A stretch of DNA of 63,889 nt, the filler included, from an uncultured Methanosarcinales archaeon (GTDB lineage: Archaea; Nanobdellota; Nanobdellia; Woesearchaeales; CAYXTQ01): NCBI GenBank assembly GCA_964608065.1. It is 5 parts of 4 records of this genome, joined end to end, with 100 filler letters (N's around TTAATTAATTAA, not from the genome) between each part and the next. Parts side by side here need not be neighbours in the genome. Positions count along the whole stretch, not along the records: positions 1 to 16,471 come from CAZSMA010000001.1; 4 more parts are not named here. One strand, given 5' to 3'. Shown here one piece after another: positions 1-61,770 of the stretch. The translations under genes and the position numbers were made by a program. How positions within the stretch are numbered: position 1 is the first letter of the stretch; every line of letters begins with the position of its first letter. The notes beneath the pieces were generated by a model. The model did not search any database and was not told the DNA's origin. It worked only from the letters and a program-made list of their open reading frames with translations.

Positions 1-51
1 TGGAGGAATAGGTTACCATTGCACTAAAGTGCAAGGTATCCTTTGAATGTA

Positions 52-822
52 ATGAATTCAAAAAATAATAAAATTATAATAAAATATGATATTGGTGAAA
101 ATATAATAATAGAAAATGGGGTTATGAGGGTAGCTAGGTCTGCACATATACTAAAAATTCCAAAAAGAGTAAATAAGGATCTAGCCTATTTAGCAGGCTA
201 TCATCTTGGAGATGGTTATTTGGAAGATGTTAACAAAACTTTGAACAGACAGGGAAGAGGAAGTTATGAGATTGACTATGCTGACAATAATATTAAACAA
301 CTTGAAATTATAAATAAAATAATAAAAGATGAGTTTAATCATAAATTAAGAATTTACAAAAGACCTAATGTCAATTTATGGATAGCTAGAACTGACTGTA
401 AAGTTTTGCACTGGTTTTTAAATAAAAAACTAGAATTACCAATTGGAAGAAGAAAAATTATCAAAATCCCACAATGGATTCTTGCTAACGAAAATTTCAT
501 AAGTAATTTTCTAAGCGGTTTTTTCGACGCTGAGAGTGATGTAAGTAAAACTACAAACTGTATTGTAAAAGGCAAAAGATATTATAAGATAAGAATCCAA
601 TTAACTCAAAAAGATAAAAATATACTTAATGAAATACAAAAAATACTCAAAAACAAATATGACATAAAATCTTGTATTTTTAAAAAACATAAACAAGAAG
701 CTTTTATTCTAAAAATTGATGCTAGAAAACCTATTAAAATATTTAAAGAAAAAATAAATTTTAGACACCCAAAAAAAAGAGAAAAACTTGAAATATTATG
801 TAAAGAATTTAACCTATTATAA
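52..822 (+). CDS. Free-standing double-motif LAGLIDADG homing endonuclease family protein
   Basis: Motifs LAYLAGYHLGDGYL and FLSGFFDAESDV about 110 aa apart; no intein splicing motifs; ATG at 52 (TTG at 43 possible); 3' end overlaps the leuS stop. Confidence 0.85.
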   Translation: MNSKNNKIIIKYDIGENIIIENGVMRVARSAHILKIPKRVNKDLAYLAGYHLGDGYLEDVNKTLNRQGRGSYEIDYADNNIKQLEIINKIIKDEFNHKLRIYKRPNVNLWIARTDCKVLHWFLNKKLELPIGRRKIIKIPQWILANENFISNFLSGFFDAESDVSKTTNCIVKGKRYYKIRIQLTQKDKNILNEIQKILKNKYDIKSCIFKKHKQEAFILKIDARKPIKIFKEKINFRHPKKREKLEILCKEFNLL

Positions 823-3466
823 TAGCAGGTTTATTAGGTAATGCCTTAGCTGCTTTTTGATCTTTAGAATCTTCTGCTTTTACAAATTCAACAGAAGCTT
901 TAAAATTTTTTTCAAAAACCTCTTTAGAATTTACTAAATTCTCAAACTCTGTTTTCTGGTCTAATACTGCTTTTGGCATTTTGGAAGGGTCCTTTAAGAA
1001 TATAGGAATCATTTTTGTGATATCTTTCCCATGTTTTCTTAACTTCTCTTCTTTCATCACAGCCTTAATCAACCCACTTATATCTCTTTGTTTCTCAATC
1101 TCTTTCTTTAAGATTTTAACAAACTTATATTTCCATTCTGCTGAAACAATCATTGTAATCTTTTTAGGATTCTTAACATTAATCAGTTCTAGAACTGCTT
1201 TAATATCAGCTATTGTTCTGTCAATTAACTCATCTACAGCATCTAGTTTAACATCAATCTTATTCTTATCATATTTAGGCCATTTCTCTAATGAAATAAA
1301 CTCTTTATTTCCTAATTTCTCCCACAATTCTTCTGATAAATGTGGAACAAAAGGTGCAAGCATAATAACCAAACTCTCAGCAACTTTTTTATTTATTTCA
1401 TCAAAATTACTCAAATAGTTTACTAACTCCATTAAAGATATTATCGCATTATTTAGTCTAAAGCTTTCAAAATTCTCTGTAACTTCTTTAATTGTTTTGT
1501 GCATCTTACTTATCTGTTTATTATCATCTTTATCTGTTCTTTTTTTCTCAGTTATCAGCCTATAAACCTTATTCAAGAATCTAAAGCTTCCTTCAACACC
1601 TTCATCACTCCATTCCATATCTTTACCAGGAGATGCAACAAAAAGAAGAAACAATCTTCCTGTATCAATACCATACTTTTTAGAAACTTCTTCCGGCAAA
1701 ACAACATTTCCTCTGCTTTTACTCATTACATGATTTTCTTTATGCAACATTCCCTGGTTAAACAACCTTAAAGCAGGTTCGTCAAAATCAATTAATCCTA
1801 AATCCTTGAAAAATTTAGTAAAAAATCTGAAATAAATCAAATGTCCTGTAGCATGCTCCTTTCCACCAATATACTGGTCTATAGGCAGCCAGTAATTCGC
1901 TTTTTCTTTTGAAAATATATTTTTACTATTCTTAGAGTCAGCATATCTCATAAAATACCAGCTGCTGTCAACAAAAGTATCCATTGTGTCTGTCTCTCTT
2001 TTTCCTTTTCCTCCGCATTTTGGACACTTAACATTAAAAAATTTCTTTGATGTCAGCATTGGATTTCCACTACCGCCAAATTTTACATCTTCTGGAAGCA
2101 AAACAGGTAAATCCTTTTCAGGAATAGGAACTCCTCCACATTTATCACAATAAATTATTGGTATAGGGCAACCCCAATATCTTTGTCTTGAAATTAACCA
2201 ATCCCTTAACTTATAATTAATAGTGCTTCCTCCTTTTTTTCTTTTCTCTAATTCTTTATTGATCTCTTTAATAGCCTCCTTGTTATTTGTTCCATTAAAT
2301 TTATCAGAATTAACCAGATTGCCATCATCAAGATAAGCTCTGCTCATCTTATCAGAATCCAAGTCAAACATAGGGCTACTAATAACAACCTTTATAGGGA
2401 TATCAAACTTCTTGGCAAACTCAAAATCTCTTTGGTCATGAGCAGGAACAGCCATAACAGCTCCAGCACCATAGCTGTATATTACAAAATTACCTATATA
2501 AACAGGAACTTCTTCATTAGTCATTGGATTTATAGCATACTTTCCAATAAACATTCCTTTTTTCTCTGCTTCTGCATTTGTCCTATCAATAAAGCTTTCT
2601 TTCTGAATCTCTTGCAAGAATTTTTCAAACTCTTTCTCATATTTAGTTCCTTTAACCCACCCTCTCACCAAATGATTTTCTGGAGCAAAAACCATGAATG
2701 TAACCCCATATATTGTATCAACCCTTGTTGTGAATATCGGAATTTCCTCATTAGTATCCTTCATCTTAAATTTTATAAGTGTTCCTTCACTCCTTCCAAT
2801 CCAGTTCCTCTGCATTATCTTTATATCTTCAGGCCATTCTTTTAATTTATCCAATCCTTTCAGCAACTTCTCACAATAATCTGTTATTTTGAAAAACCAT
2901 TGATCTAAGTCCTTAACTTCAACATCTGTATCAGTATGCCTCCAGCACTTTCCCTGAACAACCTGTTCATTAGCTAAAACTGTTTTACATTGAGGACACC
3001 AATTTACAAAACTCTTTTTCTTATAAGCTAGTCCTTTCTTATACAACTGTAAAAATATCCATTGATCCCATTTATAATATTCAGGAGTATGACATGCTAA
3101 CATCCTATTCCAATCATAACTCAACCCTAATTCCTTTTGCTGCTTTACAAAATTCTTGATTGCGTTCTCAGTAAATATTTTTGGATGTGATTTAGCCTTA
3201 ATAGCAGCATTCTCAGCTGGCAATCCGAAGCTATCATAACCCATAGGATAAAGAACATTAAATCCATTCATTCTTTTGTATCTTGCAAAACAGTCTCCTA
3301 TTGCATAATTCCTTGCATGACCCATATGCAATCCTGAAGCGCTTGGATAAGGGTACATTTCTAGAACATAGTATTTTTTTTTTTTTATATCTACTTCAAC
3401 CTCAAATACTTTCTTTTCTTCCCATTTTTTTTGCCATTTCTTGGCAATTTTGTTGAAATCAACCAT
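809..3466 (-). CDS. leuS: Leucyl-tRNA synthetase (bacterial-type core, archaeal-type C-terminus)
   Basis: LEMYPYPSASGLHMGH (HIGH), FTTRVDT editing domain, LRDWLISRQRYWGCPIP, DTMDTFVDSSWY, VMSKS, terminal ALPNKPAIII. Confidence 0.97.
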   Translation of the reverse strand: MVDFNKIAKKWQKKWEEKKVFEVEVDIKKKKYYVLEMYPYPSASGLHMGHARNYAIGDCFARYKRMNGFNVLYPMGYDSFGLPAENAAIKAKSHPKIFTENAIKNFVKQQKELGLSYDWNRMLACHTPEYYKWDQWIFLQLYKKGLAYKKKSFVNWCPQCKTVLANEQVVQGKCWRHTDTDVEVKDLDQWFFKITDYCEKLLKGLDKLKEWPEDIKIMQRNWIGRSEGTLIKFKMKDTNEEIPIFTTRVDTIYGVTFMVFAPENHLVRGWVKGTKYEKEFEKFLQEIQKESFIDRTNAEAEKKGMFIGKYAINPMTNEEVPVYIGNFVIYSYGAGAVMAVPAHDQRDFEFAKKFDIPIKVVISSPMFDLDSDKMSRAYLDDGNLVNSDKFNGTNNKEAIKEINKELEKRKKGGSTINYKLRDWLISRQRYWGCPIPIIYCDKCGGVPIPEKDLPVLLPEDVKFGGSGNPMLTSKKFFNVKCPKCGGKGKRETDTMDTFVDSSWYFMRYADSKNSKNIFSKEKANYWLPIDQYIGGKEHATGHLIYFRFFTKFFKDLGLIDFDEPALRLFNQGMLHKENHVMSKSRGNVVLPEEVSKKYGIDTGRLFLLFVASPGKDMEWSDEGVEGSFRFLNKVYRLITEKKRTDKDDNKQISKMHKTIKEVTENFESFRLNNAIISLMELVNYLSNFDEINKKVAESLVIMLAPFVPHLSEELWEKLGNKEFISLEKWPKYDKNKIDVKLDAVDELIDRTIADIKAVLELINVKNPKKITMIVSAEWKYKFVKILKKEIEKQRDISGLIKAVMKEEKLRKHGKDITKMIPIFLKDPSKMPKAVLDQKTEFENLVNSKEVFEKNFKASVEFVKAEDSKDQKAAKALPNKPAIIIG

Positions 3467-3510
3467 TTTATTATAATTTTTTTATTTTATTTTTTTATTT
3501 TTTTTTTTTT

Positions 3511-3551
3511 AAAAAATAAAAAAAAAAAAAATGCAGAGCCCTTAAAGGGCT
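3511..3551 (-). terminator. Candidate attenuator hairpin plus U-tract upstream of leuS
   Basis: Minus strand AGCCCUU-U-AAGGGCU (3551-3537), then CUGCA and about 20 U (3531-3511). Confidence 0.6.
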
Positions 3552-3598
3552 AAAAGTAATAAAAGAAGTAATAACAGCGATAAACTTGTTTGTTTCAT
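3542..3598 (-). CDS. Leucine-rich leader peptide MKQTSLSLLLLLLLLLAL (candidate leuS attenuation leader)
   Basis: ATG one nt after the rpoN TAA; 11 of 18 codons are Leu, nine consecutive; ends 75 nt before the leuS ATG. Confidence 0.7.
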   Translation of the reverse strand: MKQTSLSLLLLLLLLLAL

Positions 3599-3599
3599 T

Positions 3600-3797
3600 T
3601 TAAAACTTCTTAAACTGTGCTGCCTGATCTATAAGCTCAACATTACCTAAAAACATTGCTCTGCAGCAATATCTTTCTAATCCTATCCCATCTAATACTT
3701 TCTTTCTATCTTCTCCTTTTTCAACTCTTTCTTCATACTCTTCCCATAAATGAGCTAATGGTTTTCCGCAGCTCCAGCATCTTATTGGTATTATCAT
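3600..3797 (-). CDS. rpoN: RNA polymerase subunit N (Rpo10)
   Basis: MIIPIRCWSCGK...RYCCR zinc motif. Confidence 0.97.
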   Translation of the reverse strand: MIIPIRCWSCGKPLAHLWEEYEERVEKGEDRKKVLDGIGLERYCCRAMFLGNVELIDQAAQFKKF

Positions 3798-3819
3798 GAT
3801 ACAGGTTAGAATTAAGGTT

Positions 3820-3840
3820 TGGTTTATAAAATTATCGGAA
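3820..3840 (-). promoter_or_regulatory. Archaeal TATA-box promoter for rpoN-leader-leuS
   Basis: Minus strand CCGATAATTTTATAAACC; similar CCG-N-TTTATAAA pattern upstream of rps13 (~9700) and RNase P RNA (~14280). Confidence 0.55.
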
Positions 3841-3992
3841 ATAAATTTTCAAGTGTTGAAAATTATTTAATCAATTAGTAATATATATATAACTCAGAAT
3901 ATAAAGGATAATAAATCCTAAAAAAAATACGTTACTACTTTAGAAACATAATAAAAAGAAAGATTTAAATATTAACTTATATTTTTAACATA

Positions 3993-4633: not shown

Positions 4634-5779
4634 TTATTGTGAATGATAATTTATTCTTTCTATAATATGTTTTGGCGTTTTTAGTCTTCTTATATCCAAG
4701 TTATTCTCTTTCCTTACTCTCTGAACTTTTATAGCACTTACACCAACTTGTTCTGCTATTTGCCAAGCTGGAGCAGAAGGGTCTTTATGATGTAATTCAA
4801 TAATCTTTTTAATTATTTTTTGAGGTATTTTATTGTGAGGATGGGGCATCTTACTTTTGTAATCTTTTAATTCATCAAAATCACCATAAAGACTTAGCAT
4901 TCTTAGAAATTTATTGTATTTCTTAGGACTTAAACACATAAGTCTCTGTTTAAATAATTTAAGATTGTTTTCTTTTTTAGAGACAATTAATCCAACAAAA
5001 TTATCATAATTAGTTGAGCTTATTCCTAATCTATTTAAACAATCTTGGAATATTTTTCTTTCTTCAAATTTATTAGAACTTATATAAACCCTATAATGTT
5101 TAGATTGTTTATGAATCTCTACATTTGATTCTCCAGCTATTATTCCTCTCATAAAATTCCTTATTTCATCTTCTTCGTAACTTAATATATTTTGAGTCGT
5201 TTTTTTAACAAAATTCTTTATTATCTGACTTAGAATATTATTTTTACGTTCAATAATCAAAGTACCATAATCATAAAACCCCAATTCCTTATTCTCAGTA
5301 TTTTTAATATAACTAACTTTTTTAGGATAAGCTTGTTCTAGAGATAAACCTATTTTTTTAATCCAATGATTAACAACTTTACCCTCAACTTCTTTTTTAT
5401 AACTCTGATCCAAAGGTTCATTAATATTTATTTTTATGTACCATTTCCATCTATCTTTTGGAAAATAAAGTTCTTTATCAAACCAATTAATTACTTTGTT
5501 GATTAATTGGTGTTCGTGATTACAAAAATTAATACAGCCATTTTGTGTTTTGCCCATCTCTGCTTGTAGCAATCCTAAAACTTCAAATGTTTCATTTGTT
5601 TTTGAAATAAAACGCGGGATAATGTAACAATATTCCCTAAAACCTGCGTGTTCAGAAGGACGAAAGTAATAGCAAGTTAAAGATTCATCATCTACTTTTA
5701 CTTTCAACTCATATTCATATTTATTCTTCCCACTAACAATATTTTTTGGGAGATACTTTATTAAATCAATTTTTTCCAT
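4634..5779 (-). CDS. LAGLIDADG-like protein with C-terminal helix-turn-helix
   Basis: Divergent motifs FEVLGLLQAEMGK and FMRGIIAGESNV; C-terminal IIELHHKDPSAPAWQIAEQVGVSAIKVQRVRK is HTH-like. Confidence 0.75.
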   Translation of the reverse strand: MEKIDLIKYLPKNIVSGKNKYEYELKVKVDDESLTCYYFRPSEHAGFREYCYIIPRFISKTNETFEVLGLLQAEMGKTQNGCINFCNHEHQLINKVINWFDKELYFPKDRWKWYIKININEPLDQSYKKEVEGKVVNHWIKKIGLSLEQAYPKKVSYIKNTENKELGFYDYGTLIIERKNNILSQIIKNFVKKTTQNILSYEEDEIRNFMRGIIAGESNVEIHKQSKHYRVYISSNKFEERKIFQDCLNRLGISSTNYDNFVGLIVSKKENNLKLFKQRLMCLSPKKYNKFLRMLSLYGDFDELKDYKSKMPHPHNKIPQKIIKKIIELHHKDPSAPAWQIAEQVGVSAIKVQRVRKENNLDIRRLKTPKHIIERINYHSQ

Positions 5780-16471: not shown

Positions 16472-16571
16472 NNNNNNNNNNNNNNNNNNNNNNNNNNNNN
16501 NNNNNNNNNNNNNNNTTAATTAATTAANNNNNNNNNNNNNNNNNNNNNNNNNNNNNNNNNNNNNNNNNNNN
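16472..16571. other. Artificial contig linker
   Basis: N44-TTAATTAATTAA-N44 (stops in all six frames). Confidence 0.95.
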
Positions 16572-22457: not shown

Positions 22458-22557
22458 NNNNNNNNNNNNNNNNNNNNNNNNNNNNNNNNNNNNNNNNNNN
22501 NTTAATTAATTAANNNNNNNNNNNNNNNNNNNNNNNNNNNNNNNNNNNNNNNNNNNN
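22458..22557. other. Artificial contig linker
   Basis: N44-TTAATTAATTAA-N44. Confidence 0.95.
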
Positions 22558-31790: not shown

Positions 31791-31890
31791 NNNNNNNNNN
31801 NNNNNNNNNNNNNNNNNNNNNNNNNNNNNNNNNNTTAATTAATTAANNNNNNNNNNNNNNNNNNNNNNNNNNNNNNNNNNNNNNNNNNNN
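31791..31890. other. Artificial contig linker
   Basis: N44-TTAATTAATTAA-N44. Confidence 0.95.
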
Positions 31891-61670: not shown

Positions 61671-61770
61671 NNNNNNNNNNNNNNNNNNNNNNNNNNNNNN
61701 NNNNNNNNNNNNNNTTAATTAATTAANNNNNNNNNNNNNNNNNNNNNNNNNNNNNNNNNNNNNNNNNNNN
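61671..61770. other. Artificial contig linker
   Basis: N44-TTAATTAATTAA-N44. Confidence 0.95.

Follow-up and report, generated by a model that had tools for sequence, protein, structure and literature searches.

Known leader-peptide attenuators and the locus between rpoN and leuS

Leader peptides that are read by the ribosome are textbook bacterial control, with pheM of pheST and leuL of Escherichia coli among the known bacterial leaders, and at pyrBI of E. coli the terminator hairpin is occluded by the ribosome while UTP is sensed through polymerase pausing. Here we analyze a short open reading frame (ORF), referred to as the mini-ORF, that encodes a run of leucines between rpoN and leuS in a 63,889-nucleotide (nt) stretch of archaeal DNA (the window; NCBI GenBank assembly GCA_964608065.1). 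Amino acid gauges of this type are proven only in bacteria, and the leuS mini-ORF is most likely an archaeal variant of them.

Classical attenuators have been predicted upstream of leuS and trpS in Streptomyces (PMC1262725), and leaderless polycysteine short ORFs of mycobacteria are cysteine-responsive attenuators (Canestrari et al., bioRxiv 10.1101/834739). Archaeal transcription ends at oligo-T tracts, with assistance from aCPSF1 (PMC8716108). Our literature searches on archaeal leader peptides and attenuation returned no published archaeal case, and in the available portion of a 2026 review of termination signals (PMC13675443) neither "attenuat" nor "leader peptide" occurs.

An earlier note on this DNA had proposed a leucine-sensing leader in front of leuS, and most of the anatomy that it described stands. 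The features of the locus are given below in the direction of transcription, with promoters, that is the B recognition element (BRE) and TATA box, scored by a position weight matrix (PWM).

3823..3836, minus strand: predicted rpoN BRE/TATA promoter GATAATTTTATAAA, PWM 11.4 bits, starting at -39 from the rpoN ATG
3600..3797, minus strand: rpoN, RNA polymerase subunit N/Rpo10, 65 amino acids (aa) (Pfam RNA_pol_N, E 1.1e-27)
3542..3598, minus strand: 18-codon mini-ORF MKQTSLSLLLLLLLLLAL, candidate leucine-gauge leader peptide (translation and homologues)
3537..3551, minus strand: hairpin AGCCCU-UUA-AGGGCU (sequence and fold)
3511..3531, minus strand: T14-A-T6 tract, an archaeal oligo-T termination signal (sequence)
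3467..3510, minus strand: A-rich 44-nt spacer that holds the degenerate counterpart of a leuS BRE/TATA, AAAAAAAATAAAAA (3492-3505; PWM and alignment)
809..3466, minus strand: leuS, bacterial-type leucyl-tRNA synthetase, 885 aa (Pfam; NCBIfam leuS_bact 978 bits)

Translation bears out the Leu-rich ORF that the note had placed one base past the rpoN stop. The ATG (3598-3596) is separated from the rpoN stop codon (3602-3600) by the single base 3599, and ahead of the TAA stop (3544-3542) 11 of the 18 codons are Leu, nine of them consecutive, spelled with three Leu codons (TTA six times, CTT four times, and CTG once). The hairpin needed revision, because although the ORF does end inside it, the 7-bp stem with a 1-nt loop of the first description cannot form, and the structure instead has 6 bp and a 3-nt loop, with the 5′ arm AGCCCU at 3551-3546, the loop UUA at 3545-3543, and the 3′ arm AGGGCU at 3542-3537. 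The 5′ arm corresponds to the last two sense codons of the mini-ORF, and the stop codon begins in the loop and ends on the first base of that 3′ arm. Beyond CUGCA follow T14 (3531-3518), a single A, and T6 (3516-3511), which agrees with the earlier count of about 20 U, and the leuS ATG at 3466 is 75 nt past the mini-ORF end, as had also been reported. The tract starts 69 nt 3′ of the rpoN stop, as a plain oligo-T terminator would (at least 5 T soon after a gene), a status that is compatible with a gauge and does not exclude one. An archaeal ancestry of the DPANN type fits both the gene for RNA polymerase subunit N and a genome-wide BRE/TATA motif.

Like the bacterial leader-peptide attenuators, the locus has a short, conserved ORF of cognate codons upstream of the gene, a hairpin with a U-tract at the end of the ORF or beyond it (here a GC-rich stem followed by T14AT6, conserved and covarying), and a putative sensor in the speed of the ribosome. 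Unlike them, it is archaeal, it has no antiterminator/terminator pair, and the stop codon is inside the single hairpin; the family at large is predicted to be leaderless, termination would be of the archaeal oligo-T type, with or without aCPSF1/FttA, and a separate synthetase promoter is predicted past the U-tract, where a bacterial attenuator has no promoter between ORF and gene. With pyrBI the locus shares a single terminator hairpin that overlaps the end of the leader ORF, so that a ribosome could block the hairpin physically, although pyrBI senses UTP rather than an amino acid and is bacterial.

The likeness to the mycobacterial polycysteine ORFs is a leaderless mini-ORF as first cistron, a run of one residue as sensor, and several loci per amino acid signal (a "ribulon"). 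In the present genome, however, the mini-ORF is not leaderless but follows rpoN, its best promoter match scoring only -0.7 bits, whereas an ORF at the transcript 5′ end is predicted in 17-18 of 20 distant family members. The ribosome-binding site that is freed in the mycobacterial type has no counterpart at this leuS, which lacks an upstream Shine-Dalgarno sequence (AATTATAATAAAATG) and looks leaderless; one valS relative does have GGAGG behind a Val5 mini-ORF. Oligo-T termination in archaea likewise involves a T-tract that follows a gene, but in contrast to general archaeal terminators the hairpin here is conserved, carries compensatory changes, and is linked to the stop codon of the ORF, and GC hairpins directly 5′ of T-runs are rare after the genes of this genome (3/566).

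Composition and assembly of the mini-ORF

The Leu mini-ORF is not a chance ORF. Leu runs of at least nine residues occur three times in the whole six-frame translation of the genome (1.40 Mb, 31% GC), and among 900 ATG-initiated upstream ORFs (uORFs) of 6-45 aa preceding genes of at least 100 aa, the mini-ORF ranks first both by single-residue run and by single-residue fraction. Its peptide has 11 L and zero I, V, or F, whereas the L/I/V/F shares in generic hydrophobic 12-mers of this proteome are.32/.32/.16/.19, and the chance hydrophobic intergenic ORFs of the genome, of which 43 were found, are mixtures of F, L, and I.

The earlier note had also raised the reliability of the homopolymers. 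Logan contigs from three runs in three studies match 3540-3742, 3540-3860, and 3556-3706 without any difference, so the ORF and hairpin are reproduced exactly, but the contigs break within the homopolymers and none spans 3465-3539, which leaves the exact tract lengths, that of T14-A-T6 included, unconfirmed. Two further candidates were rejected: a signal-peptide remnant of a lost gene, given that the ORFs between rpoN and leuS at 7 other loci have no similar N terminus, and a repeat or mobile element, given that the hairpin motif occurs once in the genome.

The mini-ORF in relatives of the genome

In what follows, L and G numbers are labels of compared loci and genomes, with G000 denoting this genome. 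A same-genus genome (L031) has the mini-ORF MKEKFNSLTFLLFLLLLLAL and a metagenome relative (L036) has MKENNSLTLLILLLFLAL, with Leu at 10 of 20 and 8 of 18 residues, respectively, and both keep the stop codon in a hairpin followed by a T-run. At four-fold sites of leuS the identity of the three species is only 0.57-0.64, and in their alignment the indels within the mini-ORF are all multiples of 3, whereas the flanks have gaps of other lengths. In the congeners 40 nt and 100 nt separate the mini-ORF from the upstream rpoN, versus one base in G000, where a deletion between AAGTTYTAA repeats apparently brought it to this position. The congeners' spacer between rpoN and mini-ORF (L031:1559-1658, L036:1034-1076), which G000 lacks, holds a perfect palindrome, TTGAAAATTTTCAA.

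A relaxed scan of 190 leuS loci (30 from related genomes, 80 metagenome loci, and 80 from named-species genomes with the titles Woesearchaeota, Pacearchaeota, and Nanoarchaeota) detected small ORFs with a Leu-rich hydrophobic tail upstream of leuS in 25 cases in the sense orientation versus 3 in antisense; two of the 25 are identical to each other and one is nested within a different ORF. Homologues of the mini-ORF are counted at 24 of the 190 loci. Conserved Leu-rich uORFs in related genomes, to which the earlier note had looked for support, are thus found both in the two congeners and in a distant family. Among 20 distinct distant members, such as MKLTQNLLVLVLVLVLALL and MKQTQLLCLLLMLVLVLAL, a 9-13-bit BRE/TATA match starts 35-37 nt upstream of the mini-ORF ATG in 17-18, and from this spacing they are predicted to be independent leaderless genes, with leuS 288-660 nt downstream, mostly behind a promoter match of its own. 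At one further locus, L148, rpoN is followed by a mini-ORF of 16 aa whose peptide has an LLLL run; a hairpin with T9 comes next, ahead of leuS. Tallied over 23 peptides of the leuS family, the last 8 residues comprise L 98, V 49, I 7, and F 2, the purest Leu run being that of the present genome.

Between mini-ORF and leuS the 20 distant members carry a small, fast-evolving ORF of 72-112 aa, which we call X (for example L172:315-584, L160:340-561, and L064:580-855). By BLAST the X sequences form a few small families; apart from three sub-threshold matches they hit no Pfam family (E <=0.05), they have no ESM Atlas match, and no promoter match of their own is seen in the distant members. A tblastn search of this genome gave no X homologue.

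Covariation in the stop-embracing hairpin

Stems of 6-9 bp that embrace the stop codon were found in 14 family members (12 distinct), with arms that include AGCCCT/AGGGCT, GACTCT/AGAGTC, GGCTCT/AGAGTC, TGGCCT/AGGTCA, GCTCTT/AGGGGC, and TGCTTT/AAAGCA. The six core pairs are all kept, each as 2-4 pair types, and both sides have changed in as many as 44 of the 66 sequence pairs. A perfect-stem search yields full pairing by construction, and the sole informative control is therefore a shuffle of the 3′ arms among members, which gave a mean pairing of 77% and in 0 of 5000 trials reached the observed 100%. The covarying hairpins for which the earlier note had proposed a search in relatives are in this way present. 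Several U-G pairs in the stems fit a sense-strand RNA. On our reading of the printed sequences a run of at least four T follows within ∼12 nt in 10 of the 14, and in the distant members the hairpin is at or just past the stop codon, usually with a T-run after it.

MAFFT/RNAalifold on the hairpin windows brought the stop codons, not the arms, into register and returned no structure; with the arms out of register, covariation was tallied from the arms of the stem search. Of the Rfam covariance models none came near its gathering score, the best being Phe_leader on the opposite strand (18.6 bits versus 55). The feature is real, is conserved, and very probably has a function.

Isoleucine and valine runs before other synthetase genes

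We ran a promoter-plus-ATG scan upstream of ileS, valS, pheS, and the PF00579 synthetase, which with leuS makes five synthetases sampled.

ileS (TIGR00392, 736 bits): 47 loci, 8 promoter-proximal mini-ORFs; last 8 residues I 36, L 2, V 3, F 2
valS (1005 bits): 35 loci, 4 mini-ORFs, 3 with V5 runs, all of one family; last 8 residues V 16, L 1, I 1
pheS: 25 loci, 1 mini-ORF, no run; residues not tallied
PF00579 (Trp/Tyr-type) synthetase: 21 loci, 2 mini-ORFs, no run; residues not tallied

The ileS loci are published ones, four from unpublished genomes (L257, L258, L264, and L276) being left out of all counts, and the mini-ORFs are those of 8-35 aa with a promoter of at least 7 bits. Seven of the eight end in or beside an Ile run, and that of this genome is Ile-rich without a run; the peptides are MPNTIIMAISIITA (this genome), MPFLINIGIMRISIIIIA, MEQKIEILISII, MNETIVYIIGIVASLVSIIIIIS, MTGSCSIRNGISIII, MRAKKPQNIRISSIVSFIIII, MSADLIQLQISVIII, and MSLNIFSIIII. 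A stricter scan (at least 6 aa and at least 8 bits) gave nine ileS mini-ORFs, six with an Ile run of at least three, the odd one being MYYYIL at 653 nt upstream. In the present genome MPNTIIMAISIITA is at L114:2182-2226 (-), which is G000:C34:4513-4557, 81 nt upstream of ileS, and is leaderless by its promoter match of 10.7 bits at -38. An 8-bp hairpin, CUCUGGGUU..AAACCCAGA, follows it, and mini-ORF and hairpin together precede the canonical ileS promoter, a build like that at leuS. In an outer pairing, the stretch of Ile codons UUUCUAUCAU is joined with AUGAUAGAAA beside the ileS TATA; a relative has UUUCUAUUAU/AUAAUAGAAA, with one compensatory change from C-G to U-A. The search for cognate-rich uORFs at the other synthetase genes of this genome, also suggested in the earlier note, was rewarded only at ileS, with none upstream of the rest of the 15 found.

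The three V5 peptides before valS, MICVVVVVA, MTHVVVVVA, and MSQASLVNVVVVVL, are encoded 51-72 nt upstream of the gene (L243:1414-1443 (+), L333, and L336) and are leaderless by promoter match. At L243 the stop codon is inside the hairpin GUGGC-GUGA-GCCAC, a conserved CTCATTGT..TTCTCYAG stretch follows, and valS has a GGAGG site, so masking of a ribosome-binding site of the mycobacterial type is possible there. The congener G001 has no mini-ORF before its valS. The N terminus of valS is missing from the assembly of the present genome.

The dominant residue thus follows the downstream synthetase three times, which a purely hydrophobic peptide does not predict, and this comparison is the weightiest support for a gauge. 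The sequences of any one family can hardly be aligned, yet the dominant residue is kept. Each family is nevertheless of common descent, and the effective number of independent observations is therefore small.

Predicted promoters around the mini-ORF

From the upstream regions of 670 genes with an upstream gap of at least 70 nt we derived the archaeal motif GAAAACTTTATATA, which begins at -39 to -36 relative to the start codon at 226 of 368 sites. According to GeneMarkS-2, leaderless starts have the archaeal promoter box at a distance of ∼26 nt (PMC6028130), and by that spacing the position of the motif is a signature of leaderless mRNAs. A transcript of rpoN from its predicted promoter would accordingly carry no leader.

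For leuS, both congeners have a canonical BRE/TATA, ATAAAAATTATAAA, which scores 9.7 bits at -39/-38 and so ranks in the top 0.04% of genome positions, and the alignment of the three species places at the same position in this genome the A-rich, degenerate AAAAAAAATAAAAA (8.6 bits at -39). Across the 53 related loci with ATG as aligned first codon, the best promoter match within 120 nt upstream of leuS is at -41 to -35 in 41. At the start of the mini-ORF a conserved AAGTTTTAAAATG scores as a weak TATA (5.3-6.8 bits). T-runs of at least five are enriched straight after stop codons in this genome, where 73 of 234 first runs fall within 10 nt. With T-runs after stops and a predicted leuS promoter, an rpoN terminator followed by that promoter covers part of the anatomy, but not the ORF or the hairpin.

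A probable ribosome-read leucine gauge

On balance, and with confidence somewhat above even, we favor the reading that the mini-ORF encodes a leader peptide that gauges charged tRNA-Leu and belongs to an order-wide set before leuS, ileS, and valS. In this genome the mini-ORF would be transcribed together with rpoN from the rpoN promoter and, with its start one base past the rpoN stop, would probably be translated by termination-reinitiation, which needs overlaps or very short gaps (PMC6728339, PMC10666635), a description that one base fits. The re-initiation proposed in the earlier note therefore suits this genome but not its congeners, at 40 and 100 nt, nor the distant relatives with their own leaderless promoters.

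We infer that the speed of the ribosome over the Leu codons sets whether the stop-embracing hairpin forms while RNA polymerase is on the T-tract, and that this in turn would set whether upstream transcription ends or runs into the leuS promoter and gene. A ribosome that stalled late in the Leu stretch, at codons 12-18, would sit over the 5′ arm and block the hairpin, as in the occlusion model of the earlier note; a stall at the first hungry Leu codons (6 and 8-10) would not reach the 5′ arm, and the hairpin would form. To occlusion-type antitermination as the mechanism we give about half the confidence that we place in the gauge as such. With a leuS promoter predicted past the T-tract, the output could be either added readthrough transcripts or relief of promoter occlusion; in the latter variant readthrough would occlude the leaderless leuS promoter, and termination under starvation would free it.

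Several observations weigh against a leucine gauge. The earlier note had itself counted a separate leuS promoter past the U-tract as refuting its leader, and one is now predicted there from a BRE/TATA at leaderless spacing, so that leuS need not depend on readthrough and the mini-ORF would not lie in a simple 5′ leader of leuS. The mini-ORF itself has no promoter match in this genome better than the -0.7 bits given above, a canonical promoter is missing in all three genus members, and AAGTTTTAAAATG could direct transcription to start inside the mini-ORF instead. Archaeal RNA polymerase terminates at oligo-T without a hairpin, hairpins being able to enhance termination without being required (PMC13675443). 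No alternative antiterminator pairing appears in the minimum free energy (MFE) and centroid folds, which contain only the hairpin and pairing between U-tract and A-tract, or in the three-species alignment, in agreement with the earlier note. No mini-ORF is present in the nearest relatives beyond the genus, whose synthetase is 81-85% identical at the N terminus; the leuS family is rich in Leu and Val, not in Leu alone, and shows L-to-F and L-to-I changes in relatives; and its members are kin, so that counts overstate their independence. In the distant members X, not leuS, may be the primary target. Finally, a Val-rich 28-aa mini-ORF of this genome (12 Val, ending VVVVVV; L255:1148-1234 (-), which is G000:C16:8447-8533), with a promoter match of 13.4 bits and its stop codon in the hairpin GUCGUA-UAAU-UACGAC, precedes a gene other than valS, lying 81 nt upstream of a 106-aa gene that has GGAGG and belongs to no Pfam family.

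The leucine-sensing leader of the earlier note has thus gained strong comparative support from the conserved ORF, hairpin, and T-run, the Ile runs at ileS, and the Val runs at valS, and has at the same time to accommodate a predicted promoter of leuS itself. A wider proposal, which we consider rather unlikely, is an order-wide archaeal ribulon in which Leu-, Ile-, and Val-run mini-ORFs, mostly leaderless, gauge tRNA charging from outside the synthetase messenger and act by attenuation-controlled promoter occlusion or added readthrough, the stop-embracing hairpin setting whether strong upstream transcription stops short of the synthetase's own leaderless promoter or passes over it; if true, it would be a leader-type amino acid sensor built by an organism with leaderless mRNAs. 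Should the elements be gauges, translation and transcription are coupled for regulatory purposes in archaea, also in DPANN lineages that have reduced genomes and are unable to make their own amino acids, and the control runs on archaeal promoters, mRNAs without leaders, and termination at oligo-T. Such gauges would also be a new regulatory class to seek among unannotated archaeal short ORFs. The trio of Leu, Ile, and Val would be a built-in specificity control for experiments, and the elements are short (∼60-100 nt) and can be moved to reporters in Haloferax, Methanococcus, or Thermococcus.

Alternative explanations

The best surviving alternative, which we hold to be unlikely, is that the mini-ORF is the gene of a tiny hydrophobic, possibly membrane, peptide with its own terminator, and that its place near leuS is inherited gene order with no regulatory role. 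The peptides do have a polar N terminus and a hydrophobic tail, L, V, I, F, and M replace one another among the leuS-family peptides, the distant members have an independent leaderless promoter, a hairpin with T-run, and another small gene next, and the Val-rich example stands before a non-synthetase gene. This explanation does not account for the 84% Ile (ileS) and 89% Val (valS) among L/I/V/F of the last 8 residues, against the generic shares given above, or for runs that always adjoin the stop codon and hairpin. A stretch of 12-14 residues is moreover short for a membrane span, and the hydrophobic part is just that long, with 9-aa cases such as MICVVVVVA.

Less probable still is a decaying relic, a leader that lost its promoter and its partner X in this genus and is now at most an rpoN terminator. 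In line with such decay, the three genus members have no canonical promoter before the mini-ORF, tblastn finds no X in the genome, the G000 deletion fused the mini-ORF to rpoN, and the nearest outgroups do not have the element. Yet ORF, hairpin, and T-run persist in three species at ∼40% neutral-site divergence, the Leu run of this genome is the purest of the family, and L148 has independently the order rpoN, Leu-run mini-ORF, hairpin, leuS.

The weakest alternative, a mere rpoN terminator (hairpin and oligo-T) followed by the leuS promoter, with the ORF as a T-rich by-product, fits the T-runs that are the norm straight after stops here, the abundance of random T-rich ORFs, and the other lineages in which rpoN is directly upstream of leuS with a T-rich stretch, a TATA about -30 from leuS, and no mini-ORF, but it is very improbable given that three species and a family of at least 20 share the start, frame, and stop of the ORF, that distant homologues have their own promoter and are not behind rpoN, that GC hairpins directly before T-runs are so rare after genes here, and that chance ORFs of this genome are not pure Leu.

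The leuS gene and its surroundings

The synthetase scores 304 bits with NCBIfam leuS_arch, under the cut-off of that model. The named-genome scan with this bacterial-type leuS also gave Clostridium, Garciella, and Pseudobacteroides records, with 64-68% identity over the first 150 residues, which suggests either that the gene moved between Firmicutes and these archaea or that contigs were mis-binned. Extra leuS fragments are present in both genus assemblies (G001:C146, labeled L032, and G000:C99:5-463), with identities of 77% at the N terminus and 45% at the C terminus, and may be a second copy or bin contamination.

The window is a chain of contigs, and the runs of N that join them are at 16472-16571, 22458-22557, 31791-31890, and 61671-61770; the leuS locus is on contig C1, and 31891-61670 is contig C3. 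Two ORFs that flank rpoN-leuS contain homing-endonuclease-like LAGLIDADG_3 domains, one at 43-822 (+) with E 1.2e-11 and the other at 4634-5779 (-) with E 6.8e-05.

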